From Octopus sinensis (Eukaryota): 64,000 bases of DNA. The position numbers and the translations under genes are program-made. The DNA is taken from the NCBI RefSeq assembly GCF_006345805.1, contig NC_042997.1:75144001-75208000 (forward strand), given 5' to 3'. Positions within the stretch are counted from its first letter, which is position 1. Each line of letters begins with the position of its first letter. Positions 1 through 55,655 of this stretch are shown here, one piece after another. A model generated the notes under the pieces. That model was given only the letters and a program-made list of their open reading frames with translations, ran no database searches and had not been told where the DNA came from.

Positions 1-513
1 GTAAAATTAATTAATTAATCAATTTCACCAAGTATTCAGTATGCAAAGGGACCAATTAAGGCGAATTCAAATTATTACATTATATAAAAGGGCTTAGTAA
101 AATAAATTACTTTGCCGCATACTGAACTCATTAGAAATAGCAGCTAAAAAAAACTTTTTTAAAGCTATTTCTAATATTACTAAGCCCTTTTATATAACGT
201 AATAATTTGAATTCGCCTTAATTGGTCCCTTTGCATACTGAATACTTGCTGAAATTGATTAATTAATTAATTTTACCCTCAATTGTTGAAATTATAATTC
301 ATCTCTCTCTATATAATGCCTCGGATTTTACCGAAAAAAGCATAGTGTTTACTGATTTTAACTCACGCTGGTGGAAAGGGGAGAGCAGAAATTCTTCGCT
401 TGCATTTTTGAGTTTGCTGGCACTGTTAGTTTCGAGCAGATCTTCAGAAGCGATAAGAAGCCGAAAGGGTATGCTCACACTTTCAGTGTTTTCAAATCCA
501 AACCAGGGAGTTC

Positions 514-566
514 TGAGCTGATGATAGAAATGTCGAGTTTGACTAATCTTGAATCGTACGTTCTCA
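514..566 (+). ncRNA. Type I hammerhead ribozyme, core-mutated copy (GAAA>GAAT)
   Basis: tgag-CTGATGA-stemII-GAAT-cgtacg-TT-ctca. Confidence 0.6.
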
Positions 567-1070
567 AATAACCTTTGCATTTGATTTTTAATGTCTCTAC
601 CCCCATACTTTCGTGAGTTGAATTGAGCAAACACTATATGAGAGAGGTTTTCTTTAAGTATTAGAAATAGCTTTAAAAAAGTTTTTTTAGCTGCTATTTC
701 TAATGAGTTCAGTATGCGGCAAAGTAATTTATTTTACTAAGCCCTTTTATATAATGTAATAATTTGAATTCGCCTTAATTGGTCCCTTTGCATACTGAAT
801 ACTTGGTGAAATTGATTAATTAATTAATTTTACCCTCAATTGTTGAAATGATAATTCATCTCTCTCTATATAATGCCTCGGATTTTACCGAAAAAAGCAT
901 AGTGTTTACTGATTTTAACCCACGCTGGTGGAAAGGGGAGAGCAGAAATTTTTCGCTTGCATTTTTGAGTTTGCTGGCACTGTTTGTTTCGAGCAGATCT
1001 TCAGAAGCGATAAGAAGCCGAAAGGGTATGCTCCCACTTACAGTGTTTTCAAATCCAAACCAGGGAGTTC

Positions 1071-1123
1071 TGAGCTGATGATAGAAATGTCGAGTTTGAC
1101 TAATCTTGAAACGTACGTTCTCA
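1071..1123 (+). ncRNA. Minimal type I hammerhead ribozyme
   Basis: Stem I tgag/ctca, core CTGATGA, stem II aga..gtc/gac..tct, GAAA, palindromic stem III acgtacgt, GUU triplet. Confidence 0.75.
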
Positions 1124-1315
1124 AATAACCTTTGCATTTGATTTTTAATGTCTCTACCCCCATACTTTCGTGAGTTGAATTGAGCAAACACTATATGAGA
1201 GAGGTTTTCTTTAAGTATTAGAAATAGCTTTAAAAAAGTTTTTTTAGCTGCTATTTCTAATGAGTTCAGTATGCGGCAAAGTAATTTATTTTACTAAGCC
1301 CTTTTATATAATGTT

Positions 1316-1642
<327 letters not shown>

Positions 1643-2490
1643 ATTGATTGATTGATTGATTGATTCTAGTTTCAGTATGAGCTGTGGCCATGCTGGGGCA
1701 CCGCCATTTGGTGTTGCTACTTGGTTTCACTTCATGGAGGCTTTCTAGCAAACTGCTTTTTGGTGCATGAGAGAGTTCGATGCAGCTGCCCTCATCTGCC
1801 CCTCCTGCCGTGAAGTTGGTTCATCTGGGACACCTGACAGGAAGAGATCCAGCTCCATTTTAAAGACATCTGTATCCACCCCATGCAGGTCTCTCAGGTT
1901 CTTCGGGAGGATATTGAAGAGCTATGGGCCTCGGAAGCCCAGGCTATCACAGAATCTTGTCCTACATCTTGATGGCAAGTTTGGAGTCCTAGGCACCACG
2001 CAGTGGCGCCCAGTTCTGGCATTTGCGTAACTCTCGATGCCAAAGTTCAGGACACTTCCCTCCAGGATCTTCCAGATGTATATTATGGCATATCTTTCCC
2101 GCCTACGCTCCAGGGAATATAATTTTAATCTCTTGAGTCTTTCCCAGTGCTTACATTCTGCATAGAGGCTATCTTCTTCGTGCAGCTTCGTTGGATCGCC
2201 TCAAGTTCTGTGATCAACTTGACACTGGATGGTGACCATAGCTGAGAGCAATAGTCAAAGTGGCTTAGGACAAGTGTCTTCCAGAGGACCATCATGGTTT
2301 CTTGTTCTCTTGTTCTAAAGGTTCTAAGAATCCATCCAGCCAGCCGTCTGCATTTCATTGTCAGTTTAGCAACATGTACATGAAAGATCGCGTCATCACT
2401 CATGTGAATACCCAGGTCACGCACTGATTGTGCCTCTGGGATTGCAATCCCTCCGGGTCCAGTGTATTCCTTGGGTATTGCATTCAGTTG
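1643..2490 (-). mobile_element. 5'-truncated CR1-group LINE (3' end of ORF2, 3' UTR, (CAAT)n tail)
   Basis: ORF 2125-2499 matches the ORF2 C-terminus of other copies ([19 protein letters not shown]). Conserved 3' end ccccagcatggccacagct. Confidence 0.9.
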
Positions 2491-2553
2491 GGTATACATA
2501 TGTATATGTATGTATATATGTATATATATATGTATATATAATATATATGTATG

Positions 2554-2622
<69 letters not shown>

Positions 2623-2640
2623 TGTATATATATATATATG

Positions 2641-2688
<48 letters not shown>

Positions 2689-2870
2689 GTATAATATATA
2701 TATATGTACGTATATATGATCTATATATATATATATGTTATATATATCTGTGTATAATATGTATGTATATATGTATATATATGTATATGTATGTATATAT
2801 GTATATATATATATATGTATATATATGTATTGTATATATATATTATATATATATATATTAATATATATAA

Positions 2871-3126
2871 TTTAGGGTAAAAATTGATATTTATGAATTA
2901 GAACCAGTGGTCTAGCATATAAAGAAAGAATCCGAAGATTAAAATATTTATATATACCAATTAAGGACTGCACACGAAAAGTGGACAGTCAACATGCTAG
3001 ATATAGACGTCAAATCGCCATTCTCCACATGTCTCCACATTCTCCACATTCTCCACACGGAGAATGGCGATTTGACGTCTATATCTAGCATGTTGACTGT
3101 CCACTTTTCGTGTGCAGTCCTTAATT

Positions 3127-3135
<9 letters not shown>
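2871..3135 (-). repeat. Short element ending in a ~75-bp inverted repeat; probable truncated PLE end with 5' inversion
   Basis: ~2950-3026 is the reverse complement of ~3059-3135. Spacer is made of ctccacat repeats. Flanked by (TA)n. Confidence 0.5.
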
Positions 3136-3168
<33 letters not shown>

Positions 3169-3169
<1 letters not shown>

Positions 3170-3546
3170 CTCTCTCTATATAAACGGCAGTTTGTCTGTG
3201 GTGTTTTCTGTGTGTCTGTTTGCTTGTACCCTCACCTGACCACGGCTTTCAACCGATTCTGATGAAACTTGACACACACATAGCCCAATGCCATAATTCA
3301 AAACTAACGCAGCGAAAATTTTGAAAAGTTCCCCCAGTTCTGAAAAAAATCGATAAATTCGACATGGGGTCGAAAATCAGAAACACGAACCACAAACTGT
3401 CTAGGGGACGCAACTCCCCTTTTTTAACTAAAATAAATTTACCATAATTTTTTTCCATTTTTTTGCTGTTTTTTGGCTATAACTCTCTAAAATGCTTTAT
3501 AGTTATTTCCCTTACAAACCTGAGCAACGCCGGGCGATACTGCTAG
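3169..3546 (+). mobile_element. Non-autonomous Helitron
   Basis: 5' TC..TATATAAA; 3' hairpin cctgagcaacgccggg then CTAG; inserted between A and T. 3' end shared with the 54.6-61.4 kb array. Confidence 0.8.
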
Positions 3547-3599
<53 letters not shown>

Positions 3600-3632
3600 G
3601 TATGTATATATATATGTATTGATATATATATG

Positions 3633-3664
<32 letters not shown>

Positions 3665-3909
3665 GTATATATATATATATAGATAATGTATATATATATA
3701 TATATATATATGTAATATATATATATATGTATATATATATATATTGTATATATATATATGTATATATAATATATGTATATTATATATATATGTATATTAT
3801 ATATATTATATATATATATATATATATATTATATATGTATATATATATAATGTAATATATATATATCTAGTAATTTCTGTATATATATATGTATTTATAG
3901 TATAATATG

Positions 3910-4026
<117 letters not shown>

Positions 4027-4056
4027 GTATATATATATATGTATTATATATATATG

Positions 4057-4137
<81 letters not shown>

Positions 4138-4158
4138 GTATATATATATATATATATG

Positions 4159-4199
<41 letters not shown>

Positions 4200-4210
4200 A
4201 TATATATATG

Positions 4211-4624
4211 TGCGCAGGAGTGGCTGTGTGGTAAGTAGCTTGCTAAGCAATCACATGGTTCCGGGTTCAGTCCACACTGCGTGGTATCTTGGGCAAGTGT
4301 CTTCTGCTATAGCCCGGGCCGACCAATGCCTTGTGAGTGGATTGGGAGACGGAAACTGATAGAAGCCTGTCGTATATATGTATATATATATATATGTATG
4401 TGTGTGTTTGTGGTCTGTGTTTGTCCCCCTAGCATTGCTTGACAACCGATGCTGGTGTGTTTACGTCCCCGTCACTTAGCGGTTCGGCAAAAGAGACCGA
4501 TAGAAAGTACTGTGCTTACAAAGAATAAGTCCCGGGGTCGATTTGCTCGACTAAAAGGCGTTGCTCCAGCATGGCCGCAGTCAAATGACTGAAACAAATA
4601 AAAGAGTAAAAGAGTAAAAGAGTA
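4211..4624 (+). mobile_element. tRNA-derived SINE
   Basis: A-box-like tggctgtgtgg, B-box-like ggttcagtcc, CR1-like 3' stem-loop, (AAAAGAGT)n tail. Second copy at 61435-61843. Confidence 0.85.
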
Positions 4625-4689
4625 ATATGTATCTATATATGTATATATATTATAATATATGTATATATATATATGTGTATATATATATG

Positions 4690-4720
<31 letters not shown>

Positions 4721-5045
4721 GTATATATATATATGTATATATATGTATATATATATGTATATATTAAATTAATTAATAAGGGTGAGAGAATTAGATACTA
4801 TTTAATAGTATATCTATTCAACACAAGTGGCCTAGTGCTCCGAGAAACCTGGATTATTATAATATTTTATAACATATTATAATATTTTTACAAATAAATA
4901 TAAGAGAGTGGTCACTATATGGCTCACTCGCACCAGTTAATCCAAAAGGTTTCCAAACCACGAAAATACATGTTTCCCATGAAAGTCAGTACGATTGTTA
5001 GCTCACACGGACAGGGCAAATAAAAAATAACAAAAATACAGATTA

Positions 5046-5130
5046 TTTTGGGACAATTGTTTCGCTATTAATGAATTAAATGTAATTTTACACTTACAAA
5101 AAAAATCCATTTGTAGCTCGTCAGCCAAAA
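5046..5130 (-). ncRNA. Minimal type I hammerhead ribozyme, copy 1
   Basis: Minus strand: ttttgg-CTGACGA-gcta(long loop)tagc-GAAA-caattg-TC-ccaaaa; GUC site. Confidence 0.85.
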
Positions 5131-5576
5131 CTATCTGGATGCAATCCACTCAATCACACGCCAGATTTTACCATAACGATAAATACGCGTGTGGTTCAAT
5201 TGATTACATCCGACGTTATAATTCAAATGCCCCAACCAACAGCGCGCCAAACTTTCACGGAAAACAAATACAGCATTTAGAAATAATGCAGCATAATTAT
5301 AATTAATTAATAGGTGTGATAGAATTAGATACTAATTTAATAGTATATCTATTCAACACCAAGTGGCCTAGTGCTCCGAGAAACCTGGATTATTATATAT
5401 TTTATAACATATTATAATATTTTTACAAATAAATAAAGAGAGTGGTCACTATATGCTCACTCTAGCACCAGTTAATCCAAAAGGTTTCAACAACCACGAA
5501 AATACATGTTTCCCATGAAGTCAGTACGATTGTTAGCTCACACGACAGGGCAAATAAAATAACAAAAATACAGTTA

Positions 5577-5658
5577 TTTTGGGACAATTGTTTCGCTATT
5601 AATGATTAAATGTAATTTTACTTACAAAAAAAATCCATTTGTAGCTCGTCAGCCAAAA
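5577..5658 (-). ncRNA. Minimal type I hammerhead ribozyme, copy 2
   Basis: Same core and stems intact; differences confined to the stem II loop. Confidence 0.85.
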
Positions 5659-6109
5659 CTATCTGGATAAATCCACTCAATCACACGCCAGATTTTACCA
5701 TAACGATAAATACGCGTGTGGTTCAATTGATTACATCCGACGTTATAATTCAAATGCCCCAACCAACAGCGCGCCAAACTTTCACACGGAAAACAAATAC
5801 AGCATTTAGAAATAAATGCAGCATAATTATAATTAATTAATAAGGGTGAGAGAATTAGATACTATTTAATAGTATATCTATTCACACCAAGTGGCCTAGT
5901 GCTCCGAGAAACCTGGATTATTATAATATTTTATAACATATTATAATATTTTTACAAAATAATATGAGAGTGGTCACTAATATGGCTCTCACTCTAGCAC
6001 CAGTTAATCCAAAAGGTTTCACCAACGAAAATACATGTTTCCCATGAAAGTCAGTACGATTGTTAGCTCACACGGACAGGGCAATAAAAAATAACAAAAA
6101 TACAGATTA

Positions 6110-6191
6110 TTTTGGGACAATTGTTTCGCTATTATGAATTAAATGTATTTTTACTTACAAAAAAAATCCATTTGTAGCTCGTCAGCCAAAA
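6110..6191 (-). ncRNA. Minimal type I hammerhead ribozyme, copy 3
   Basis: Same core and stems intact. Confidence 0.85.
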
Positions 6192-6710
6192 CTATCTGGA
6201 TGAAATCCACTCAATCACACGCCAGATTTTACCATAACGATAAATACGCGTGTGGTTCAATTGATTACATCCGACGTTATAATTCAAATGCCCCCACCAA
6301 CAGCGCGCCAAACTTTCACGGAAAACAAATACAGCATTTAGAAATAAATGCAGCATAATTATAATTAATTAATAAGGGTGAGAGAATTAGATACTAATTT
6401 AATAGTATATCTATTCAACACCAAGTGGCCTAGTGCTCCGAGAAACCTGGATTATTATAATATTTTATAACATATTATAATATTTTTACAAAATAAATAT
6501 AAGAGAGTGGTCACTATATTCTGTATTTTTGTTATTTTTTATTTGCCCTGTCCGTGTGAGCTAACAATCGTACTGACTTTCATGGGAAACATGTATTTTC
6601 GTGGTTGAAACCTTTTGGATTAACTGGTGCTAGAGTGAGCCATATAGTGACCACTCTCTTATATTTATTTTGTAAAAATATTATAATATGTTATAAAATA
6701 TTATAATAAT

Positions 6711-9700
6711 CATCTGCCCTCATCTGCACCTACTGCCGTGAAGTTGGTTCATCTGGGACACCTGACAGGAAGAGATCCAGTTTCATTTTAAAGACATCTG
6801 CATCCACCCCATGCAGGTCTCTCAGGTTCTTCGGGAGCATATTGAAGAGCTGTGGGCCTCGGAAGCCCAGGCTATCACAGTATCTTGTCCTACATCTTGA
6901 TGGCAAATGTGGAGACCTAGGCACCACGCAGTGGCGTCCAGTTCTGGCATTTGTGTGACTCTCGATGCCAAAGTTTGGGACACGTCCCTCCAGGATCTTC
7001 CAGATGTATATTATGGCATATCTCTCCCGCCTATGCTCCAAGGAATAGAGTTTTAATCTCTTGAGTCTTTCCCAGTAGCTTACATTCTGCATAGAGGCTA
7101 TCTTCTTCGTGTAGCTACGTTGGAGCGCCTCGAGTTCCGTGATCAGCTTGACACTGGATGGTGACCATAGCTGAGAGCAATAGTCAAAGTGGCTTAGGAC
7201 AAGTGTCCTCCAGAGGACCATCATGGTTTCTTGTTGTCTTGTTCTAAAGGTTCTGAGAATCCATCCGGCCAGTCGTCTACACCTCATTGCCAATTTAGCA
7301 ACATGTACACGAAAGGTTGCGTCATCACTCATGTAAGTACCCAGGTCACGCACTGATTGTGCCTCTGGGATTGCTATTCCTCCGGGTCCAGTGTATTCAT
7401 TGGGTATTGCATTTAGTTTTGCATGTTGATAGTATAAAGCTTGAAACTTCTCAGCATTGAACTGCATGCTATTCTTTTCAGCTCACTTGTATATTTTGTC
7501 CAGCTCACATTGCAGGCGTTTAGTGTCCTTAGGGTTCTGTATTGCCTGTGAAACTTTTGTATCATCTGCATAACTTGTGATCGTGGCTCTCTGCGTGGCT
7601 GAGGGCATGTCTGAGAGGGCTATTATGAACAGTAGTGGTCCCAAAACAGTGCCCTGCGGAACACCGCTCACTATTTGCGTGTTAATGGAAGTGGCCCCAT
7701 TGGCTACTACCACCTGACTTCTATTCTTCAGAAAGTCATGAAGCCATTCTCCCAGTTTTCCAACTATGTTGAGATCACGCAGTTTGTGACATATCATTCC
7801 GTGATCGACTTTATCAAAGGCCTTTGCAAAGTCGAGATATATCACTTCCACATTTGAGTGGTTGAGCAGTCGTTTCAGCACCCAGTCATAGTGTTGTAGG
7901 AGCTGAGTTAAACAGCTTCTCCCTGGTCGGAAACCATGTTGGGTGTCGGGCAGCAAGTCATTTTCTTCAAGGAAGGTGATCAGTTTCCTGACTATTCGTT
8001 CCATGACCTTGCTGATGTGTGATGTCAGAGAGATAGGTCTGTAGTTCTTGGCCTCCGATCTGCTACCTCCTTTATGAATGGGGCATATTTTACCTTCCTT
8101 CAGTTTTCTTGGAAGTTTGCCAGCTGCAAGGAAGCTCTGAAAGAGGAACTGCAGTGGTCTTGCTAGGATTCTCTTACATACTTTTAGGAGGATTGCTGGG
8201 AATCCATCAGGGCCAGTAGCTGAGTCTGTTTTCATTTCATCTATAGCCTTTATTACATCATCTTCCTTTATATCGATGTGATCTATCGTCGCTGCCTCTG
8301 ATTTTATATCTGCAGTGGTAAAGAAGTCAGTTGGATTGGTGATTTGGAGATGCCCAAGGGGTGGAGTGAAAACACTCGTGAATTGCTCATTCAGTATTTC
8401 ACTTACCCTCATTGGTTTTCCTGTAAGTGTGCCATCCATTTCAAGGAGTGGCCCTATTCTACTGTGCAACGTAGCTGTTTCTTTGGCATACCTGTAGAAA
8501 GCTTCGGGATTAGATTTTATGTTGTCTATACCCAGGCTTTTTGTCTGCTCTTTCCTTTTCATGGGAGAGTTGCAGACATTTTTCAATTTCCAACAGTTTT
8601 ATTTTCAGGCGGGTCTTTCACTGCTTCAATCTGTTTGTTTAGGCGATTTGAAATTTTGTACGCCGTCTCATTAAAATTTTCCTCTCTCTGGGATTTTGTT
8701 CTTGTGTGTACAGTGGCCATTCTCTCTGGACACATTTGTAGCATATGGCTTGCATTACAGACATGAATGTTGAAGTTTCACGTCGATGTCTGGCGAGGAG
8801 AGACATTTAGGCCAGTTTTGTTTGAGGATCTCTTTCTTATTTGTTTTCCAGTTTGCCTTATGGTAGTTCAAGCTGGAAGATTCTGAGGGTTTCTTGTAGG
8901 CTGCATGTCCGTGCTCTCTTTTGGCCCGTACATGGTCAGCTCTACCATGTTGTGATCCGAGAGTAGTGTCGGTGTCCTCTTCACATTATGGATGAGATCC
9001 ATATTATTTGTGAAGCAGAGATCCAGTGTGTTACCTGCCCCTGGGTGGTTGGAGTATTACTTGCTCCATGTACAGGGTGTTGATGAGGTTCAGGAGGGAC
9101 CTCGCCTGTCCTCGTTCACATCTTGTCATTCCTGGGAGAGAAAGGCCCTCAGGCCATCTGACATTGGGTAGATTGAAGTCTCCCATGTGTTGTTCTAATG
9201 TGATTAGAACTTCTTCTATTTTTGTAAGGCAGTCTTCAAACTTGCCTACATGGCTTGGGCCATCTGGAGGGCGATATGTAGCACACACATCTACATCAAG
9301 TTGCCTTATATGTACAATTAGTGTGTCACACACCGAGTTTGAGTATGACAAAAGGACCTGGGGTGTGAGGTCCTCACGGATGTACATAGCAACTCCTCTA
9401 TGACTCCTTTCTTTTCTGTCGGTCCGTAGTACAACATACTGTGGTATGTGTAATTCCGCATCTGCTATGTCCGGTTTCAGGTGCGTTTCCGTAAGTGCTA
9501 TGCATAAGGCTTGATTGCATGCGACAAAGTCTCTCAGGAACGATATTTTTGTCCTGTTACTGAGTGTTTGCAGTCCTCTGATATTCAGTAGGAGCATCGA
9601 GGTGAGGTGTATGTTGTTGCCGGCGGTGTCCATCTTGGGTCTGTTTGCTGTGGTGGTCTTGTATATTGTGGGTAGTCCCACCTGTGAGCTTGGGTTTGAT

Positions 9701-10252
9701 GAAGCCAGGTCAGCTGCTGTACAATCTTTTGTGCCATGCACAAAAAAGATTGTTGCTCAGCAGCTGCCCTTTCAACAACGTCATGTTGGCGGTTTGTGGC
9801 ACGCACCACATCTGCGTACCTCCGTTTTGGGGCAGGTGGTGCGTGGTCCATCCCTTTTCCTTGTGTTGATGGTTTGTTTATCTGTTTTCGTTTCGTGTCT
9901 CTGCGGCAGGGTCCCCGATGTGCAAAGCGGCAGCCTGCACCATCCTCTCCATGCCAGCAGGTACCTCTCAGGTAGAACCTATACACCCGTGTGCGCTGTC
10001 CGTTTCCATCCCTTGCGGTTCCACTTCTATTCCTGGCTGTTTCACCCTTTGGTCCTGCTTGAGCTTTTCCTTTAGCTCTTTCAGTCCTTCTTATAGTTCT
10101 TCCTCCCTCTACTTCTTCCGTGGGTTCTCCATCTCCATGGCCCTTGCTGCCGGTAGGAGCACTTGTACTTGGGTTCAATTCTCGGGCAGGTTTCTCACTC
10201 AAAACCCCTTCCCGGGTGTCCACCAGGTGGGGTGACTTCTTTCATCGTCTCC
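6711..10252 (-). mobile_element. CR1-group LINE, degenerate (partial ORF1, APE endonuclease, RT)
   Basis: APE motifs LLNIRGL, LTETHL, GDFN (9031-9741). RT motifs YLDFAKAFD, GVPQGTVLGPLLF, YADD (7483-8586). Frameshifts present; 3' UTR missing at the junction with the hammerhead array. Confidence 0.92.
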
Positions 10253-12508: not shown

Positions 12509-13459
12509 ATGGCAAGAAACTGGTCTGCGAGAGAGGTGCAATTGTTCGTCCGCGCTGGAGGATTGCTGAGGACGACTCGCCGAACAAAATTATTGCAGCG
12601 GCGGCGCTGAAAAGCAACAATTTTCGAGAACCACCCGCCCAGATAGAGGCGAAAGAAGCGAGAATTTGTCCGTTCGTACGCTCTAATCAGGCAACATGTA
12701 GACACCCTGGACATCATCCTAGGAGGCGACGGCACCAGGGAAGGCCAAAAGGATGAAGAAATCATCCAGAACCAAACGGAGAAACCTAGAACACAGGGAA
12801 ACAATGACACATGTCCAGCTCCCAACACCACAACTGAAGACCAAAGAGGTGCGATGGCCGCAAGAAAAGAAAAGCACCCTAAAATTGATGGAAAACAGGA
12901 GGTAAAAGGCGACAAAATCAAAATCAAAGCTAAAAGAAACCCTGTCCAGAGAAACAAAAGGACCCCAGCAAGAACTATAAGGGCAAAGAAAGAAACATCT
13001 GCAAATTCTACCTGAGTGGGGACTGTTGGTACGGCGTCGAAGGTGCAAACTGTCGCTTTGCACATCGGAGGCCCTACCAAAACCGCACGGACGCGAGACA
13101 GAGGTTCCTCCCTCAGGGGGAACAAAAAAAAAGTTAAAAGAAGGGAAAAAAGCGCACTGACCACTACTGAAAGACGGTATGCAGATGTGGTGCGCGGAAA
13201 CCCAACAGGTGGCCAGCTTCACCCAGATGTGAGAAGGGCGGCAGCTGAACAGCAATCTTTTTTGTGCATGGCACAAAAAATTGTTCAGCAGCTGACCTGG
13301 CTACAAGCACAAAGCTGGAACTACCACCACATAAGGCCACCTCCAACAGATGCAGGATGGCCACAGATGCAGGATAGCCACCACAGACACCAACACCAAC
13401 ACACACACCACAAAAATATTTCTACTGAATGTAGGAGGGCTGCTGCGCGGAAACTGTAA
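12509..13459 (+). pseudogene. LINE ORF1 with CCCH zinc finger (stops and frameshifts)
   Basis: ICKFYLSGDCWYGVEGANCRFAH at ~12996-13065. RRYADVVR...FLCMAQKIVQQLTWL is shared with the copies at 9585-10223 and 50887-51279. Confidence 0.7.
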
Positions 13460-16370
13460 AAAGAAAATCTCATTCCTGAGAGACCTTGCGACATGCAATC
13501 AAGCTATATGCATGCCACTCACAGAAACGCATCTTGAACCCGATATAGGTGATGCAGAGATACACATGCCGCAATATGCAGTCATACGCACAGATAGAAA
13601 AGGGAGGAGCCATGGTGGGGTTGTAATGTACATCCGAGATGACCTCATGCCCCAGGTCCTGCTGTCATATTCAAACTCAGTATGTGAAACTCAAATTGTA
13701 CACATAAGACAACTGAATATTGTCATATGCACTACATATCGCCCACCAGATGCCCCAAAACACTCAGGCATGTTTGAAGACTGCCTAGCAAAAATAGGAG
13801 AAGTCCTCACCAACCTTGAACAGCACAACAGTGTATTCTCCATGTGTGACTTTAACCTCCCCAATGTGGAATGGCCTGGGGGGCAGATGCTCCCAGGGAT
13901 GACACGCCATCAGCAGGCACAGGTGGAGTCCCTGCTCCATCTCACAAATGCCTCTTTCATGGAGAAAATAGTTCTGCAACAAACAAGGGCAGATAATATA
14001 CTGGATCTCTGCTTCACAAACAATATGGATATTATCCATAATGTTAATGTGATGCCGACAATGATCTCGGATCACAACATAATAGAGCTGTCTATGTATG
14101 GAACAAAAGCCCCCGTAGACACACAGCCTATACGAAGCACCCACCATCTCTCCAACTTAAACTTTCTTAAAGCAAACTGGAAGGTGATTGAGAAAGAGAT
14201 CCTCAAACAGGATTGGCCTGAATGTCTCTCCACACCGGACATAAACATGAAACACAAACACTTCATGTCCATAATACAAGCCATATGTGACAAATATGTC
14301 CCAGTGTGCAGGGCCAGCACACACAAGAACAAAAACAGGATCCCTAGAGAAAGGAGGATTCTTATGAGACGACGGACAAGAATTGCAAACCGCCTGAACA
14401 AGCACACCAAAAGTGGTGAGAAGTCTCGGCTCGAAAGAATGCTAATGGAAACTGCGAAAAGTCTACATCAGTCCCATGAAAAGGAGAGAGCAGATAAATA
14501 GAGAGCTTGGGTAATAGAAAATATAAAATCAAACCCTAAAGCTTTCTTTAAGTTTGCCAAAGAGACAGCCACAATGCACCAGAGAATAGGACCTCTCTTC
14601 CAAAAAGATGGCTCTCTCACAGGAAATCCCACGAGGATAAGTGAAATACTGAACGAACAGTTCCAAAGTGTGTTCACTACACCTCTAGGACACAGGCAAG
14701 TAAACAACCCAGAAGAATTCTTTGCCACTTTACCTGCGGCCAAAGAGACAAAAATTGAGTACATCAACATCGAAGATAATGATATCGCACTAACCATTGA
14801 TGAGATTGACACAAACTCAGCTGCTGGACCTGATGGATTCCCAGCGATCCTTCTCAAATCATGCAAACAAGCCCTTGCACAATCGCTACAGCTTCTTTTT
14901 CAGAGCTTTCTTGCAAGTGGTAAGCTCCCAGTCAAATTGAAAGAGGGGGTAATATGCCCTATCCATAAGGGAGGTAGCAGAGCAGATGCTAAAAATTATA
15001 GGCCTATCTCTCTGACCTCACACATCAGCAAAGTCATGGAACGAATAGTCCGTAAGAAACTAATCATGTTCCTTGAAGAAAATGACTTACTGTCTGACAC
15101 CCAGCATGGATTTCGACTAGGTAGAGGCTGCCTAACACAGCTCCTGGAACACTATGACTGGGTGTTGAAACAGCTACTAAATGGCTCAAATGTGGATGTA
15201 ATATATCTCGACTTTGCAAAAGCCTTTGATAAAGTCGATCATGGTATGATCTGTCACAAACTGCGTGGTCTCGGCATAGGCGGGAAACTTGGAGAGTGGC
15301 TGCACAACTTCCTAAAAGACAGAAAACAGGCAGTTCTGAGCAATGGAGCCACCTCCAAGGAAACGCAAATAACAAGCGGTGTCCTACAGGGCACTGTCTT
15401 GGGGCCACTGATGTTCATAGTGGCCCTTTCAGACATGCCTTCAGTTGCTACGATGACCACCCTTGCTAGCTATGCAGATGACACAAAAGTCTCCCACGCA
15501 ATACAAAACCCTGAAAATATTGCGCATCTGCAACATGAGCTGGACACAATATACAGGTGGGCTGACGACAACAACATGCAGTTTAATGCAGGTAAGTTCC
15601 AGGCCCTGCGCTACTGGCACACAAAGGTAAATGACGTGAAGACTGGATACACTGGCCCAGGAAGAATTGCAATCCCTGAGTCAAAATCAGTGCGTGACCT
15701 GGGCATTGACATGAGCAATGATGCATCTTTCCAAATGCATATCGCTAATCTGGTGATAAAATGCAGACGGCTAGCTGGATGGATTCTCCGAACTTTCAGA
15801 ACAAGAGAGAAGGAGACACTGATGGTACTATGGAAAACATTCGTCCTCAGCCGCTTGGACTACTGCTCCCAACTATGGTCACCACACAATATAAAGCTAA
15901 CAGCAGAACTCGAAGCAATTCAGAGAAGCTACACAAAGAAAATCGTCTCAATGCAAAATATCAGCTACTGGGAAAGACTGAAGGTATTAAACCTCTTCTC
16001 CCTAGAGCGGAGGCGGGAGAGATATGCGGTGATATACATCTGGAAAATCCTGGAGGGTCTTATCCCAAACTGTGGCATTTAAAGTTACTCCAACCGCAGA
16101 ACGGGGCGCCACTGCATGGTGCCAAGGATTCCAACATCACACTCAAAATACAGGTCCAGACACTGCAACAGCTTGGGTTTCAGAGGACCACAGCTCTTTA
16201 ACATCCTCCCTAAATGCCTGAGAGACTTACATGGTGTGGATGTGGGTTTCTTAAAACTAAACTGGATCTCATCTTGTTGGGAGTCCCAGATGAGCCTACC
16301 TCACGACAGGAGACGCGGATGCGGGCAGCAGCATCGAACTCCCTTGTTGATCAAGTGCCACGTATCAGAG
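13400..16370 (+). pseudogene. LINE ORF2 (APE endonuclease + reverse transcriptase), premature stops
   Basis: LTETHL, SDH, NYRPISLTS, YLDFAKAFD, QGTVLGP, YADD, LERRRER motifs. Confidence 0.92.
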
Positions 16371-16505
16371 GTGGATTCACAAATTAGTGTTGCTCATTCA
16401 GCGGTGGTGCCCCAGCATGGCGCGGCCTTGGCGGCTAAAACATTTTTAAGGATTTAAGGATATATATATAATATATATATGCATATGTATATATATATAG
16501 ATATG

Positions 16506-17220: not shown

Positions 17221-17264
17221 CCACTACAATTGTTTCCTGTCTTCAAATGACATTCATCAGGTGG
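17221..17264 (-). ncRNA. Minimal type I hammerhead ribozyme
   Basis: Minus strand: ccac-CTGATGA-a-tgtc(atttgaa)gaca-g-GAAA-caattg-TA-gtgg; GUA site. Confidence 0.85.
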
Positions 17265-18100: not shown

Positions 18101-21100
18101 ATTTACACATACATAAACACTCAAAAGAAAAACAACATTTACACATAAACAATGCACATCCACACACATTCACACACTATCACTCTCATACAACCGCATT
18201 CCTACCGCCACTCCAACACAGATGAGTAACAAATTTAGCAGATACATACTCTCAGCCACTTACATACAGTAATATTCCCTACTCAGCAATAAACTATTAA
18301 AAAACCCCAACACCACTCTAAAACAAATTTATGAATGTGAATAATAACTTATATTGAGTTATTCTATTAATAAATCATTTAAAAACAGACCTAATATTTA
18401 TCAAAGTATGTCTAAATTATTGATAATAATAACAAAGAAAATACGATAAATAGAAACTCCATAAGCAACAAGATTAACATAAGCAACAAGATTAAAATAA
18501 GGAGAAAAAATACAAACCTTCATTCAATTTTAAAGTTATGAAGTGAATTTAAAGTCTAACCTTTATAACGTTACAAAAATTACGTTACCATAGAAATATA
18601 AGTAGAACATATTTATAATAAATTCTCTGCGCGTTATGAACGAACGTTATTTAAAAATTATGAATGGAATAGAATGGAATAATATGTTAATAAACGTAAT
18701 TAGACAGAATTTACTATAAAATTCTTTAATAAAACAATCATGATAAACGAAACCCATATATACATATAATGATAAAACCTCCCTTTAACCAAACACAACA
18801 ACATACCTATATAGCAATCCCCTAATCTATACATTCACATACAAATACACACACGTATAACACACACCCACAACATATACGTATACCCACTCACACATAC
18901 ATATACATACGTACAAAACTCACACCCACACCCATATAGATGAATAAATAAATATATATACATCCATATATATATATATATATATATCTTTATACACTCA
19001 CACATATCATCAAATACACATATATATAAAAATACACACATTCACAAAAAAATAAATAAATGAATATTTATTATATGTATATATGAGTGTGTACACGCAA
19101 ACGGGTGCAATCTCTCGCACAATCAAACATGCATGATACAATTGCATACACAAGCACACACTTTTACATAGCGCTCATGCACTCCCGCATTCCACATGCC
19201 ACACAGCACTACACGCTCACAGTGCACACACACCCATGCACATGCATATTCACGGACACCCTCCAAAACATTTAAATATACGTATATAGGGTTACAAACA
19301 ATACCCAAATAAAATAAAACTACCATGATCAACATACCAAGCTATAACTCTAAACAAATTTATGAATGTGAATAATAACTTATATTGAGTTATTCTATTA
19401 ATAAATCATTTAAAAACGGACCTATCTATTTATCAAAGTATGTCTAAATTATTGATAATTAATAACAAAGAAAATACGATAAATAGAACACTCCATAATC
19501 ATGATAAACGAAACCCATTTATCATGATTGTTTTATTACTACCCCAACTCCTCCACCACCCTTCTCCCCTCCCGATAGGCTCCATCCACCCACACCTAAC
19601 CCCACTGCCCCTCCCTACAACCCCTTCTCCCCTCCCGATAGGCTCCATCCACCTACAACCTAACCTCCTGCCCCCCCCAACACCCCCAAACGCCTCCCCA
19701 ATCCCTCCCCCTCAGACCTCCACGAGACCTACCACCCCTCCTACTTCTATTCCACCCACCCTTCTCCACTTCCGTCTGTTTTACCATTCCCCCCGATCTT
19801 CCCCTCTCTGCGGCTGAACGCTCCGTCCTTGGTAGGGGTCTGCGTTTCATCCCCCTCACTCCATCCTGTAAGGAATTCCAGACGCGAGTGATGTCCACAG
19901 CTTGTGCGCCGTGTCCGGTTGGGTGCGCATTACCACGACTCGCCACCCACACACAACGAAGAGGACTGCTTCACTGGCTGGGCCCGCCGACCATCCCCGT
20001 GGACGCCTGCCCCTGGCCAGATCCTAGCAGTGGATCTTTTCGCGGGCGCTTGTCAGCGTGCATTGGAGCGGTTCAACTTCTCCAGGCGCCAACGCCGCCT
20101 CAACATCTCCCGGGCTGAGCTCTTGGCTCTTCGTTCCCTCCAACGGCGCGCGCTGACATTATCATCAAACCGGCTGACAGGGTGGAGCTGTAGTGGTGTG
20201 GCGCGCGACCTCTATAGAGCCGAGGCTTCCGCCAACTCAATGACACCTCCTTCTATTCCCCTCTGCCCTCTAACCCCACACGTAGCTACCAACAGACGGT
20301 ATCCTCTACTGTCCAAGACCTCATCTCGTCCTCCCGTCTCCCCCGCACCTCATCCAACCTAATTGTGCGAACCCCACGTACCCCCACCATTTACTTCCTC
20401 CCCAAAATCCACAAACCCAACAACCCTGGCCGCCCCATCGTCTCCGCCTGTAACTGCCCCACGGAGCTCATCTCTAAATACCTCGACCGTGTCCTTGCCC
20501 CCCTAGTGGCATCTCTTCCCTCCCACATCCACGATACCAACCATGCTCTCCGGCTTTTCAACTCTTTCTCCTTTCCTCCCGGCTCCTCCAAAATCCTTTT
20601 TACTATGGACATCCAAAGCCTCTATACTGTTATCCCTCACCACGAGGACAGGACTGCAGGCCCTTCGACACTTTCTTGACCTCCGCTCTAACCCTGTACC
20701 TGACACCTCCACACTCATTCGTCTGGCCGAACTCGAACTTGTCCTTATCTGAACTGCTTCTCGTTCGCGGGCGAGTTCTACCATCAGGTCTCGGGAGTGG
20801 CCATGGGAACGCGAATGGGCCCCAACTATGCGAACCTGTTCGTTGGCTATGTTGAGGCCCAAATATTCTCTAATTTCACTGGTCCCGTCTACTGAACTAT
20901 ATGGTCGTTACATTGACGACATTATCGGTGCCACCTCACTCTCCGTGAACATCTAGATTCCTTCCTCTCTTTCGTCCAATCTTTCCATCCAGCCCTCCAC
21001 TTCACTTCCACTATCTCCAACACCTCTGTTCCTTCCTCGACATTTCGGTTAGCATTCTTCACTCCACTCTTACCACCTCCATTCACTACAAACACACAGA

Positions 21101-22314
21101 CTCACACTCATACCTCAACTTCTCTTCCTCCCACCAGAACAACACCAAGCTTTCCATCCCCTATTCCCCAATTCCTCCGTCTACGTAGGCTCTGTAGTGA
21201 CGACCATGACTTCGAGACTCAGTCTCAACGTATGGCTCACCACTTCACCCTACGTGGAAACCCCCTCACCACTATCCGCACCACCCTTGCCAGAGCACGG
21301 TCCGTGGACCGTGTATCTGCTCTCTCTCCCCGAACCCGCCCTGTAGTCTCCCGCCTCCCTTTTCCCCTCACTTACCACCCCATGACCCTACGTCTACAAC
21401 GCACCATTCTTCGAGCTTTCCGTCATCTCCAGTCCGACCCGTCCACTTCACACCTCTTCCCTAACCGACCCCTCCCCTCTTTCAAACGAGCCCACAACCT
21501 CCGAGACCTTTTGGTCCATAGCTCCTTCCCTGACCCTACCTCCCAACCCGGCTCGTTCCCCTGCTCCCGCCCACGTTGCCGCACTTGCCCTTACCTCTCC
21601 AACACCACCCTCCTCACTAGCACCCACCATCGACCCTATCCCATCATCCACTCCTTCACCTGCACCTCCAGCAATATTATCTATTGCGTCTCTTGCTCTC
21701 TCTGCCATTCCTTGTACATCGGACAAACGGGACGCCGCTTGGCTGACCGGTTCGCGGAACACCTTCGTGACATCCACCTTGCGAACAACACACCGGTCTC
21801 ACGCCATTTCCACTCCACCGGTCACTCCTTGCAACACCTATCTGTGTTCGGTTTGTCCTTACACAGAGGCCATCCGGATTCCCGTTTGCACCGTGAACAG
21901 GAATTAATCTTATCTCTTCGCTCTTATACGCCATTTGGTCTCAACTCTCCCTCCTCCTCATCTAACCCCCCTCTCCCCCCTCCTCACCTATCCTTCCCCC
22001 CCGACCCCTACTTCTTCAGTCCTTCATCCTTTCACCCCTACTCCCCTTCCCTTCTTCCCTCTTTCTCCCTCCCTCCTTCCCTCTTCCCCTTCCCTCTGCT
22101 CCCTCACTCCCCTTCTGTCTCCCCCTCTCCCTCTTTCCTCCTCCCCTTCCTTCTCCCCCTTCCCTCCCCGCCCCCTACTCTCCTCTTCCCCCTCTCCTCC
22201 CCTCTTCTTCCCCTCTTCTTCCCTCCCCTTCCCCTCCCCTTCCCCTCCCCTCTCCCCCCTCTTCTCCTCACTACACCACACGACTTTACACATCACATCA
22301 TATATGATGTGCCA

Positions 22315-22715: not shown

Positions 22716-22884
22716 AGCTGGTGATTCAACCCTATTATCAACCCTATTGTCTCCCCTTATTTCGCTCTCGCGTCTCATGTTTGATCTTTGACCTCTGGCC
22801 GAAATCAGATCGCCATGTTGATTCGTTAGTTACTGCACGCATTTTTTTCTCTCCTTGTTTCTCTCCGTGTTTCTTTTCTGTGTA

Positions 22885-22922
22885 TCTTTCTGTTGAAGAG
22901 CGTAGGCTCGAAACGTTAAAGA
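22885..22922 (+). ncRNA. Ultra-minimal variant hammerhead in the PLE pLTR
   Basis: tcttt-CTGTTGA-a-gagc(gtag)gctc-GAAA-cg-TT-aaaga; loopless palindromic stem III aacgtt. Confidence 0.65.
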
Positions 22923-23056
22923 CTTGTTTTATTTGTATTTCCTGAGCGCCATACTAATACAATTGTTTGTTTGTTTTCCACCTGCCTTCGTCTTTTGTCT
23001 ATTTTCATAAAGCTTCCCGTTATATATATATATGTATTATATATATATATATATAG

Positions 23057-23714: not shown

Positions 23715-26661
23715 GATTTTGATTTTGATTTTTCCAGTTTCAGCTAATGAGCTGTGGCCATGCTGGGGCACCGCCATTTGGTTTGCTACACGATTTTACC
23801 TCACGGATGCTTTTTAGCAAACCCCATCTGATGCATGAGAGAGTTAGATGCAGCTGCCATCATCTGCACCTCCTGCCGTGAAGTTGGTTCATCCGGGACA
23901 CCTGACAGGAGGAGAACCAGTCCTACTTTAAAGACATCCGCATCTACACCGTGCAGGTCCCTCAGGTTCTTCGGGAGGATATTGAAGAGCTGTGGGCCTC
24001 TGAAGATCAGGCTATCACAATATCTTGTCCTACATCTTGATGGCAAATTTGGAATCCTTGGTACTACGCAGTGGCGTCCGGTTCTGGCATTTGTGTGACT
24101 CTCGATACCAAAGTCTGGGACAAGTCCTTCCAGGATCTTCCAGATATATATTATGGCATATCTTTCTCGCCTACGCTCCAGGGAATAGAGCTTTAATCTC
24201 TTGAGTCTTTCCCAGTAGCTCATATGCTGCACAGAGGCTATCTTCTCTTGTAGCTGCTTCGTTGAATCGCCTCAATTTCTGTGATCAACTTGACACTGGA
24301 TGGTGACCATAGCTGAGTGCAATAGTCAAAGTGGCTTAGGACAAGTGTCTTCCAGAGGACCATCATGGTTTCTTGTTCTCTTGTTCTAAAGGTTCTAAAA
24401 TCCATCCAGCCAGCAGCGTCTGCATTTCATTGCCAGTTTAGCAACATGTACATGAAAGGTCGCGTCATCACTCATGTGAATACCCAGGTCACGCACTGAT
24501 TGTGCCTCTGGGATTGCAATCCCTCCGGGTCCAGTGTATTCCTTGGGTATTGCATTCAGTTTTGCATGCTGATAGTATAAAGCTTGAAAATTTTCAGCAT
24601 TGAACTGCATGCTATTCTTTTCAGCCCACTTGTATATTTCGTCCAGCTCACATTGCAGGTGCTTAGTGTCTTCAGGGTTCTGTATTGCCTGTGAAACATT
24701 TGTATCATCTGCATAACTTGTGATCGTGGCTCTCTGCGTGGCTGAGGGCATGTCTGAGAGGGCCATTATGAACAGTAGTGGTCCCAAAAAAGTGCCCTGC
24801 GGAACACCGCTCACTATTTGCGTGTTAATGGAAGTGGCCCCATTGGCTGCTACCACCTGACTTCTATTCTTCAGAAAGTCATGAAGCCATTCTCCCAATT
24901 TTCCAACTATGCCAAGATCACGCAGTTTGTGACATATCATTCCATGATCGACTTTATCAAAGGCCTTTGCGAAGTCGAGATATATGACTCCCACATTTGA
25001 GTGGTTGAGCAGTTGTTTCAGCACCCATTCATAGTGTTGTAGGAGCTGAGTTAAGCAGCTTCTTCCTGGTCGGAAACCATGTTGGGTGTCGGGCAGCATG
25101 TCATTTTCTTCAAGGAAGGTGATTAGTTTCCTTCTGACTATTCGTTCCATGACCTTGCTGATGTGTGAGGTCAGAGAGATAGGTCTGTAGTTCTTGGCCT
25201 CTGCTCTGCTACCTCCTTTATGAATGGGGCATATTTTACCTTCCTTCAGTTTTTTTGGAAGTTTGCCAGCTGCAAGGAAGCTCTGAAAGAGGATCTGCAG
25301 TGGTCTTGCTAGGACTCTCTTACGTACTTTTAGGAGGATTGCCGGGAATCCATCGGGGCCAATAGCTGAGTCTGTTTTCATTTCATCTATGGCCTTTATT
25401 ACATCATCTTCCTTTATATCGATGTGATCTATCGTCGCCGCCTCTGATTTTATATCTGCAGTGGTAAAGAAGTCAGTTGGATTGGTGATTTGGAAATGCC
25501 CGAGGGGTGGAGTGAAAACACTCTTGAATTGCTCATTCAGTATTTCACTTACCCTCATTGGTTTTCCTGTAAGTGTGCCATCCTTTTCAAGGAGTGGCCC
25601 TATCCTACAGTGCAACGTAGCTGTTTCTTTGGCATACCTGTAGAAGGCTCTGGGGTTAGATTTTATGTTGTCTATAGCCAGGCTTCTTTGTCTGCTCTTT
25701 CCTTTTCATGGGAGAGTTGCAGACATTTTTCAATTTCCAACAGTTTTATTTTCAGGCGGGACTTTTCACTGCTTTCAATCTGTTTGTTTAGGCGATTTGA
25801 AATTTTTGTACGCCGTCTCATTAAAATTTTCCTCTCTCTGGGGATTTTGTTCTTGTGTACAGTGGGCTTTCTCTCTGGGACACATTTGTAGCATATGGCT
25901 TGCGCTACAGACATGAATTGTTGAAGTTTCACGTCGATGTCTGGCGAGGAGAGACATTTAGGCCAGTTTTGTTTGAGGATCTCTTTCTCAATTTGTTTCC
26001 AGTTTGCCTTATGGTAGTTCAAGCTGGAAACATTCTGAGGGTTTCTTGTAGGCTGCATGTCCGTGCTCTCTTTTGGCCCGTACATGGTCAGCTCTACCAT
26101 GTTGTGATCCGAGAGTAGTGTCGGTGTCACTTTCACATTATGGATGAGATCCATATTATTTGTGAAGCAGAGATCCAGTGTGTTACCTGCCCTGGGTGGT
26201 TGGAGTATTACTTGCTCCATGTACAGGGTGTTGATGAGGTTCAGGAGGGACCTCGCCTGTCCTCGTTCACATCTTGTTATTCCTGGGAGAGAAAGGCCCT
26301 CGGGCCATCTGACATTGGGTAGATTGAAGTCTCCCATAAGAAGTACACTTATGTGTTGTTCTAATGTGATTAGAACTTCTTCTATTTTTATAAGGCAGTC
26401 TTCAAACTTGCTTACATGGCTTGGGGCATCTGGAGGGCGATATGTAGCACACATAACTACATCAGGTTGCCTTATATGTACAATTAGTGTGTCACACACC
26501 GAGTTTGAGTATGACAAAAGGACCTGGGGTGTGAGGTCCTCACGGATGTACATAGCAACTCCTCCATGACTCCTTTCTTTTCTGTCGGTCCGTAGTACAA
26601 CATATTGTGGTATGTGTAATTCCGCATCTGCTATGTCCGGTTTCAGGTGCGTTTCCGTTAG
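23714..26661 (-). mobile_element. CR1-group LINE (APE-RT, frameshifted), 5' end lost in the gap
   Basis: ORFs 25672-26553 (APE), 24395-25615 (RT), 23801-24232; (AAAATC)n tail. Confidence 0.93.
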
Positions 26662-26761
26662 NNNNNNNNNNNNNNNNNNNNNNNNNNNNNNNNNNNNNNN
26701 NNNNNNNNNNNNNNNNNNNNNNNNNNNNNNNNNNNNNNNNNNNNNNNNNNNNNNNNNNNNN
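26662..26761. other. Assembly gap (100 N)
   Basis: N run. Confidence 1.
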
Positions 26762-27460
26762 AACTCCTCTCTTACTAAAAATGAGATAAAATTTTACTTG
26801 CTAGACGTACTATTGTAGAGTTTGAGGAAAATTAGGGACTACAAAAGATAGACCGAACAATTTTGATATCACAGTAGGATCAAGTGATTCTGCCCAAGTC
26901 ACTGATCTCTGTGGTATCTATTTATAATACTGCAAGAATTTTTTCCAAATTTGGTAGGTCTATGCTGGGACAACACTTTGTTTATTATCCCTCATAACAG
27001 TAAAATATACACTGAGAGAATTAGGAAAAAACTGAAAAAATTCTTTAAAAACTATTGCCTAAACATTATTTTTGAATGCAACCTAAAGATTGTGAACTTT
27101 TTCGATGTAACTTTGGACCTCAAATCAAGACTATTTTATCCATATTATAAACCAGTTGAGACCACAACTTGTGTAAATCACATTTCAAACCATCCCACAG
27201 GTGTAATCAACTTATTAGTAAATGGTGTTTCAAATAGAATATTACACCTCCCTGCAAATGAAAATATCTTTGACACCTACACTCAGCATTACAACAAAGC
27301 CTTAATAAAAGTGGGATTTAAACAAACCATTAGCTATTTCCCCATGTCTAGTAAAATGAAAGATCATATAACAGAGAGTTGTAGGAACAAAAATATAAAT
27401 ACATACAAAAATACAATTAGGTGCAATAGTAAAAATGACTGTAAAAAAAAGTCCTAAACT
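26762..27460 (+). pseudogene. Degenerate Penelope-like RT fragment
   Basis: FDITVGSSDSAQVTDLCG and IVNFFDVTLDL..FYPYYKP...SNHP resemble PLE RT motifs. Confidence 0.65.
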
Positions 27461-49276: not shown

Positions 49277-49316
49277 TATATATATAAATACATATATATA
49301 TATATATATATATATG

Positions 49317-50620
49317 TTTCCAGTTTGCCTCATGGAAGTTCAAGCTGGAAAGATTCTGTGAGTTTCTTGTAGACTGCATGTCCATGGTTTCCTTTGGCCC
49401 GTACATGGTCAGCTCTACCATGTTGTGATCCGAGAGTAGTGTCGGTGTCACTTTCACATTATGAATAAGATCCATATTATTTGTGAATCTGAGATCCATA
49501 TGTTACCTGCCCTGGTTGGTTGGAGTATTATTTGCTCCATGTACAGAGTGTTGATGAGGTTCAGGAGGGACCTCGCCTGTCCTCATTCGCATCGTGTTAT
49601 TCCTGGGAGAGAAAGGCCCTCGGGCCATCTGACATTGGGCAGATTGAAGTCTCCCATAAGAAGTACACTTATGTGTTGTTCTAATGTGACTAGAACTTCT
49701 ATTTTTATAAGGCAGTCTTCAAACTTGCCTACATGGCTTGGGGCATATGGAGGGCGATATGTACCACACACAACTACACCAAGTTGCCTTATATGTACAA
49801 TTAGTGTGTCACACACCGAATTTGAGTATGACAAAAGGACCTGGGGAGTGGGGTCCTCGCGGATGTACATAGCAACTCCTCCATGACTCCTTTCTTTTCT
49901 GTCGGTCCGTAGTACACATGGTATGTGTATTTCTGCATCTGCTATGTCCGGTTTCAGGTGTGTTTCCGTAAGTGCTATGCATAAGGCTTGATTGCATGCA
50001 ACAAGGTCTCTCAAGAAAGGGATTTTTGTCCTGTTACTGAGTGTTTGCAGTCCTCTGATGTTCAGTAGGAGCATCGAGGTGATGTGTGTGCTGTTGCTGG
50101 TGGTGTCCACCTTGGGTCTATCTGCTGTGGCAGTCTTGTGTATTGTGGATAGTCCCATCTGCAAGTTTGAGTTTGATGGAGCCAGGTTAGCTGCTGTACA
50201 ATCTTTTGTGCCATGCACAAAAAAGATACTTGTTCAGCAGCTGCCCTTTCAATAACATGTTGGTGGTTTGTAGCACGCACCATATCTGCGTACCTCCGTT
50301 TTGGGGCAGGTGGTGCGTGGTCCATTCCTTTTCCTTTTGGCAGTTGGTTTATGCCTTGTTTAATGTTTATGTGGCAGGGTCTTTGGTGTGCAAAACGGCA
50401 GCCTGCACCTTCCTCTCCATGCCAGCAGACACCTTTCGGGTAGAATTTACACATTCGTGTGCGCTGTCTCCTTCTATCCTTTTGGTATATGGATAGTCAG
50501 GTTTGCGTCTATCCTTGGCTGTTTCATCTTTTGGTTTTGTTTGAGTTTTAGTTTTTCCTTCTATGGCTGTTTCATCTTTTGTTTTTCTTTTAGTTTTTCC
50601 TCCTTTTACTTCTTTTTTAT
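49317..50620 (-). repeat. Inverted duplicate of 50721-52024 (CR1 ORF1/APE)
   Basis: Mirror-image ORFs with identical translations; coordinates sum to 101341. Confidence 0.92.
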
Positions 50621-50629
50621 ATACATACA

Positions 50630-50665
<36 letters not shown>

Positions 50666-50720
50666 TACATACATATATATATATGTATGTATATATATAT
50701 GTATGTATGTATGTATGTAT

Positions 50721-55284: not shown

Positions 55285-55655
55285 CAGAAAGTTACCCAGA
55301 ATAACAAATTCTATCGTAAAATTTTGTTGTATACCCAATTGAATATTAGCTAATAACCCATTTTCTATAGCGATGTTTGAACAAAATTTTAATAATTTTA
55401 CAGAAAGTTACCCAGAATAACAAATTCTATCGTAAAATTTTGTTGTATACCCAATTGAATATTAGCTAATAACCCATTTTCTATAGCGATGTTTGAACAA
55501 AATTTTAATAATTTTACAGAATGTTACCCAGAATAACAAATTCTATCGTAAAATTTTGTTGTATACCCAATTGAATATTAGCTAATAACCCATTTTCTAT
55601 AGCGATGTTTGAACAAAATTTTAATAATTTTACAGAAAGTTACCCAGAATAACAA
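55285..55655. repeat. 116-bp tandem repeat x3 within Helitron unit 1
   Basis: Unit starts at 55285, 55401, 55517, 55633 (partial). Confidence 0.93.

Follow-up and report, generated by a model that had tools for sequence, protein, structure and literature searches.

A non-coding tandem repeat that carries two hammerhead ribozyme motifs, one of them with an altered core, raises two questions: what kind of element it represents, and which bond, if any, its transcript would cut. The repeat occupies the left end of the window analysed here, a 64-kb stretch (64,000 nucleotides) of Octopus sinensis contig NC_042997.1. The locus is likely a cephalopod example of a described class, the non-coding derivatives of Penelope-like elements. 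Its layout, the motif, the core change at position 554, the junction with a (TA)n tract and the absence of a protein were directly seen, and the main useful point of the analysis is a corrected cleavage prediction for the natural pair of motifs.

The direct array (177-1314, plus strand) consisted of two complete 557-nt units (177-733 and 734-1290) followed by the first 24 nt of a third (1291-1314), i.e. 2 × 557 + 24 nt. Compared at an offset of 557 nt, units 1 and 2 differed by nine substitutions (198, 249, 293, 363, 394, 428, 477, 483 and 554) over 581 aligned positions, with no indels. GC content of the unit was 35%, thus below 50%. The array alignment and the motif scan agreed on a tandem 557-bp unit with one intact and one core-mutated hammerhead, as the original prediction had it; the repeat was also called a family there, and while the repeat is real, this was its sole locus within the 64-kb window, where no further 557-unit sequence was found. 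The leading stretch (1-176, minus strand) had been read as an inverted partial unit of 175 bp, and it was indeed the reverse complement of 659-833, with 175/176 identity and one extra homopolymer base. This inverted arm runs leftward in its sense direction and continues past the window edge, so that 175 nt is its minimum length; it meets the direct array head to head at 176/177, the two sense directions diverging. An extent of 1-1315 had been given for the array, which stands except for its end: the element stops at 1314, where it abuts a (TA)n microsatellite tract (1315-1642) that is the likely insertion target. The insertion thus closes at its 3' end with the start of the third unit, 195 nt beyond the cut predicted in unit 2.

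The type I hammerhead motif of copy 2 (1071-1123, plus strand) possessed an intact core, with the CUGAUGA box at 1075-1081 and GAAA at 1108-1111, a helix I of 4 bp (1071-1074 paired with 1120-1123) and a helix III formed by the palindromic ACGTACGT at 1111-1118 (ACGUACGU). The succession CUGANGA ... GAAA ... NUH, closed at its ends by helix I, agrees with a type I core. Helix II comprised 3 bp, a 3×3 loop and 4 bp, with a U.U at its base; alternatively, the base can be drawn as an A-U pair with one extra base on each side, and the G10.1-C11.1 pair is missing. A U.U at the base of helix II has a precedent in the axolotl retrozyme, reported to cleave better as a dimer (PMC7229834). The cleavage triplet was GUU (U17), with a predicted cut after 1119. 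By our own count, 24 of the 56 motifs shown in PMC4209133 (Fig. S3) have U17, all three rows from molluscs among them; as U17 is this common among natural Penelope-type motifs, GUU is normal here and U17 was ruled out as a sign of decay. Another minimal register of the motif (CUGAUGA, two bases, GAAA at 1084-1087) was rejected on inspection for want of a helix I partner after it. A 16-codon open reading frame (1078-1129, plus strand) begins within the hammerhead core box and may be a vestige or chance; in the Anolis Penelope element, the main ORF is described as starting at helix II (PMC11167929).

Copy 1 (514-566, plus strand; predicted scissile bond after 562) had GAAT at 551-554. The contrast with GAAA-CGTACG-TT in copy 2, already pointed out from the sequence, was thereby confirmed. 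The T at 554 removes the A15.1-U16.1 pair (A15.1>U), and the copy was found by the descriptor scan only when U was allowed at 15.1. That GAAT breaks the palindromic stem III, as had been proposed, is true of this core pair, but the inner CGTACG is still palindromic and seven of the eight dimer pairs are kept. Given that activity is reported to fall more than 100-fold when A15.1 is changed (PMC4075628) and that GAAA is present in 56/56 Penelope-type motifs (Fig. S3 of PMC4209133), the core of copy 1 is very likely crippled.

When the unit was shuffled by dinucleotides and scanned on both strands, the type I descriptor, composed after the motif had been seen, matched 11 of 20,000 shuffles, and none of 20,000 once a palindromic helix III was required. 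Over the whole window the descriptor returned five complete motifs, namely copy 2, three of the 532-bp family at 4763-6711 and one at -17260. The Rfam hammerhead models gave no match at the gathering score, nor at E up to 10 on 1-7000; they recognised none of the five motifs, including those of the 532-bp family, which are the more canonical ones. Rfam matches to CRISPR-DR50 and microRNA models, below the gathering score, were attributed to hairpins or (TA)n and set aside as noise.

Hammerheads that act as dimers are reported to be marked by a helix III of only 2 bp and a palindromic loop (PMC4209133, PMC7229834). A helix III of 2 bp would be too short for a monomer, and two copies would pair instead through the 8-nt palindrome, the CUGAUGA-helix II-GAAA strand of each copy pairing with the GUU and helix I strand of its partner. 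Each core would then cut its partner's bond: the defective core would act on the bond after 1119, the intact one on that after 562. When this double fold was built on 514-1123, the sole pair lost was 554-1118 and 7/8 helix III pairs were kept, so that the site of the "mutant" copy would be cut and that of the "intact" copy spared. The core change at 554 would thus likely block cutting at the partner's site, not at its own, and from the topology of the fold we infer crossed activity, with a cut after 562 and not after 1119. The two copies had been proposed as a natural active/inactive control; the core defect of copy 1 supports half of that proposal, but the assignment of active and inactive does not hold, since the double fold puts the GAAU core opposite the copy 2 bond. 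The copies also differ at eight sites besides 554. The natural pair would make at most one cut, after 562, weakly or only with the help of a protein, and the 557-nt monomer (563-1119) would not be releasable in cis. For the natural transcript without protein, a cut after 562 is a tentative expectation that we place somewhat below an even chance.

It is also quite possible, if short of probable, that neither copy cuts alone, the motif being decayed or dependent on the Penelope protein as a chaperone, in which case the pair offers no activity control. One of nine predicted Xenopus dimer elements is reported to have cleaved in vitro (10.64898/2026.07.22.740005), and the Anolis Penelope hammerhead, which cleaved only with protein, was described as dispensable for insertion in vitro (PMC11167929). 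The missing G10.1-C11.1 pair and the competing folds of the octopus motif fit the same reading, but copy 2 keeps all core bases, U17 and the U.U base of helix II both have natural precedents, and the array looks young (nine substitutions in 581 positions).

That each copy acts as its own hammerhead, copy 2 cutting after 1119 and copy 1 being dead, is unlikely. Invertebrate retrozyme monomers with a 2-bp helix III are reported to self-cleave (PMC7229834), but the active monomers described there have a helix I of about 6 bp and a stable helix II, whereas helix I is 4 bp here and helix II of copy 2 is weak (-3.3 kcal/mol, z -1.2). In addition, the best fold of the copy 2 monomer is not a hammerhead and pairs the cleavage site into another helix, and a Penelope-type minimal motif alone is reported to have shown no cleavage (PMC4209133). 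Folding energies favoured single copy 2 over the double fold for the whole array 177-1314 (penalty 5.8 vs 12.9 kcal/mol) and with 100-nt flanks (7.6 vs 8.9 kcal/mol), while on 514-1123 the double fold was ahead (10.2 vs 14.1 kcal/mol for single copy 2); by flank length, it was ahead at two of three lengths. Energy folding was consequently dropped as a means of telling the modes apart, being flank-dependent and non-discriminating. No hammerhead fold was the minimum-energy fold, and the canonical 532-bp family pays a similar 4.7-12.9 kcal/mol.

With its 557-nt spacer, the natural GAAU/GAAA pair offers a ready-made way of telling single from double mode, in which a cut after 562 would mean double mode and a cut after 1119 single mode. 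A literature search for a crossed-core mutation test returned no paper.

As to the nature of the element, the non-coding 557-nt hammerhead tandem is likely a non-autonomous Penelope-like element (a non-LTR retrozyme), and was likely copied into (TA)n by the RT/GIY-YIG protein of an autonomous partner. Six-frame translation of the unit contained no open reading frame for RT and GIY-YIG, its longest frame (antisense) had no Pfam match, and unit 2 was likewise without a recognisable protein. The antisense frame over the ribozyme (856-1287) had no homologue at E 0.01 among 54 candidates, and its weak five-stretch match at E 5e-4 against 1.84 billion proteins was treated as chance. The unit had no match in phages or plasmids, and no autonomous partner with matching sequence was found within the 64-kb window.

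Several marks point to Penelope-like insertion. Published insertions of this kind are described as tandem, with an inverted 5'-truncated copy and a microsatellite target (10.1101/2021.04.23.441226; PMC2377424), and the octopus locus combined an inverted 5'-truncated copy (1-176 versus 177-1314) with a (TA)n target from 1315. A tail of 30-40 bp at one end is a further mark of such insertions; the left end of the octopus element falls beyond the window. Penelope-type motifs are characterised by a short helix I, an extra base after A9 and a palindromic helix III (PMC4209133), all of which were present in the 557-nt unit. Three other hammerhead-bearing elements in the window likewise have a (TA)n end, some 100-290 nt beyond the motif, and one of them follows a decayed Penelope-like ORF. 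A purified Penelope-like protein has been reported to nick and extend both strands at AT-rich DNA, and to start within the RNA, downstream of the hammerhead (PMC11167929). Both-strand nicking and an internal start would account for arms that stand head to head and for a 3' end lying 195 nt beyond the cut. In such a course of events, the RNA of the element would have been multimeric or circular, the partner protein would have nicked both strands of AT-rich DNA, reverse transcription would have begun inside the RNA, about 195 nt past the ribozyme, and two cDNAs primed from opposite strands would have been joined head to head at 176/177.

A 2026 preprint ties retrozymes to Penelope pseudo-LTRs and describes units of 51-972 bp (10.64898/2026.07.22.740005), a range that includes 557 nt, which lies above the range of 150-450 nt given earlier (PMC7229834). 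The motif was present in both full units, one of them core-mutated; with one complete core out of two, the array falls outside the preprint's description of an "active" retrozyme (10.64898/2026.07.22.740005). Folded as a circle, 563-1119 had a z of -5.2 to -5.5 and was more stable than 23 of the 24 control tiles run out of 30 (the single exception was a perfect palindrome). The antisense circle was nearly as stable (z -5.0), and this stability may therefore just reflect palindromes in the DNA.

Further features of the unit were a TATA-like box some 200 nt ahead of each hammerhead (308-314 and 865-871) and, about 50 nt past the cut site, a GTGAGT resembling a splice donor (613-618 and 1170-1175). 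Penelope pseudo-LTRs carry a promoter and sometimes also an intron. A 47-nt hairpin at 659-705 (plus strand), repeated at 1216-1262 and within the inverted arm, was the strongest short one of the unit (-16.2 kcal/mol, z -5.2; none of 200 shuffles equally stable). The 5' base of this hairpin is precisely where the inverted arm begins, and a pyrimidine-rich stretch ending in AG directly precedes the arm start (659-705 / 164-176).

A solitary pseudo-LTR duplicated as DNA, through unequal crossing-over or the birth of a satellite, could also produce a tandem, and is an improbable but not negligible origin compared with a retrotransposed multimer. Local tandem expansion has been raised as a route (10.64898/2026.07.22.740005), and the several palindromes of the unit could promote rearrangement. 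Such duplication leaves the head-to-head arm unexplained, however: this arm matches copy 2, not the neighbouring copy 1, at both informative sites, and the unrelated 532-bp family has the same layout. The junction of the inverted arm, with a 12-nt overlap and a 29-nt skip, would fit a fold-back at the 659-705 hairpin, but the direct sequence adjacent to the junction differs from the arm at those same two sites, and a fold-back origin was disfavoured. An assembly artefact, in which the A>T change at 554 or the inverted arm stems from read error, mis-polishing or a fold-back read, is very improbable: many small indels among the 532-family copies hint at long-read trouble, as does a perfect inverted repeat of 1356 nt around a 6-nt spacer at 49312-52029 (which may itself come from a fold-back read, a point that matters for confidence in the assembly), and transversions make up six of the nine differences, but the 557-nt copies differ by substitutions only, except for one homopolymer base in the inverted arm, and this arm is no mirror of the adjoining sequence.

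All nine differences between the copies lay within 198-554 of unit 1, the last of them (554) 8 nt before the cut site at 562, and 555-757 was identical to 1112-1314. The inverted arm, as noted, carries copy-2 alleles at its two informative sites. The copy 1 segment 177-562 could then come from a different RNA, the reverse transcriptase having jumped templates at a hammerhead-cut end near 562/563, which is the site that a crossed double hammerhead would cut; we consider this a long shot. The inverted arm of the 532-bp family, which starts 5-9 nt downstream of its own predicted cut, points the same way. Mosaic statistics gave P = 0.0025 with boundaries chosen afterwards, P = 0.02 for the terminal clean run and P = 0.20 in a boundary-free form; a mosaic of templates in copy 1 is a weak lead, and the same clustering would be expected from gene conversion or mis-polishing. 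If true, the array would record ribozyme-cut RNA ends used in Penelope retrotransposition in vivo and would point to an in vivo role for Penelope hammerheads, one that work in vitro was unable to reveal. Loci of this sort, whose copies are young and can be told apart, could reveal whether insertions are shaped by cut ends.

Several other repeats were noted in the window. A third hammerhead type at 17221-17264 (minus strand) possessed a 4-bp helix I, a palindromic helix III and A17, and its element reaches a (TA)n end some 170 nt further downstream, near 17055. A hammerhead-like motif recognised by eye at 22884-22925 (plus strand; CUGUUGA box, 5-bp helix I, 4-bp helix II, U17) is located where a decayed Penelope-like ORF (about 19800-21950) has its 3' end; this ORF had a CxxxxCxxC motif and a GIY-YIG-like stretch and no Pfam match; this element ends in (TA)n at 23020, and the A6>U of its motif would be an unusual core variant if family-wide. 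In the 532-bp family (4763-6711), three hammerheads of canonical form lie on the minus strand, with about 50 nt in loop II, and an inverted arm runs from about 6519. At 62893-63741 (plus strand), the end of a Penelope-like RT was followed by GIY-YIG (PF01541), with a zinc-finger-like linker; its nearest named matches were from Octopus vulgaris and Argonauta hians, and a short inverted stretch apparently flanks it (about 62790-62875 versus 63835-63915, by eye). Over 37% of its length, a neighbouring Penelope-like ORF fragment was 95% identical to a protein of Octopus vulgaris.

Beyond the Penelope-like sequences, one family of LINE-type retrotransposons, with an RT domain (PF00078), has left several decayed copies (6730-9756, 13335-16457, 23801-26793 and 49440-53700). 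There were also a 116-bp tandem array with 99% identity at 55285-57739, a fragment with a mariner Mos1-type HTH at 58732-59115 and a Helitron-like Pif1-helicase fragment at 60741-61292. A long inverted repeat (2999-3119 / 2878-2998) is centred on a short CATTCTCCA tandem at 3019-3057, and adjoins a stretch (about 3168-3547) that, by eye, we take to be Helitron-like.

No literature on octopus hammerhead repeats was found in our search, and the supplements of related retrozyme and Penelope papers could hold examples. Compared with known systems, the 557-nt array shares with the animal non-LTR retrozymes described in PMC7229834 and 10.64898/2026.07.22.740005 its non-coding tandem units with a type I hammerhead in each, a GC content below 50%, the presence of Penelope-like elements in the same genome and possibly a self-paired predicted circle. 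Unlike the canonical retrozyme motif of those accounts, the 557-nt unit has the Penelope type with a short helix I, and one of its two visible cores is complete. The samples named in the main accounts of these two reports include no cephalopod.

Among the Penelope-like pseudo-LTR hammerheads presented in PMC4209133, the closest were the variants of fly, mosquito, shrimp and rotifer in which helix III is small and palindromic; these have in common with the octopus motif a 4-bp helix I, CUGANGA with one extra base, GAAA, a palindromic helix III, frequent U17 and presumed action as a dimer. In the D. willistoni row (PMC4209133), helix II likewise opens with an A after CUGAUGAU. In contrast to the pseudo-LTRs described there, the 557-nt unit is without an RT/GIY-YIG ORF, has a 3×3 internal loop in helix II and lacks the G10.1-C11.1 pair. 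With the autonomous EN+ Penelope-like elements (Penelope/Poseidon, Neptune), it shares the partial tandem, the inverted 5'-truncated copy, the AT-rich target and a 3' end 100-300 nt downstream of the hammerhead, but differs in being non-coding.

The nearest comparison within the window is the 532-bp family, judged unrelated in sequence but similar in layout by the original prediction. Both judgements were borne out: the best local alignment score between the two was 24, at the level of shuffles (means 23.6, with 134/300 as high, and 21.9, with 67/300), and both have a tandem, an inverted arm and a (TA)n 3' end. They also share a palindromic 6-nt insert in helix III, while the 532-bp family differs by its 6-bp helix I, its C17 and a helix II that has G-C at its base.

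Finally, in the double hammerheads of newt satellite 2 and the avocado sunblotch viroid, as they have been described, a short palindromic helix III is likewise rescued by the pairing of two copies in one transcript; the 557-nt array differs from these in that one core is naturally mutated. Such a one-core asymmetry was reportedly made artificially by Forster et al. in 1988 to test the dimer model.
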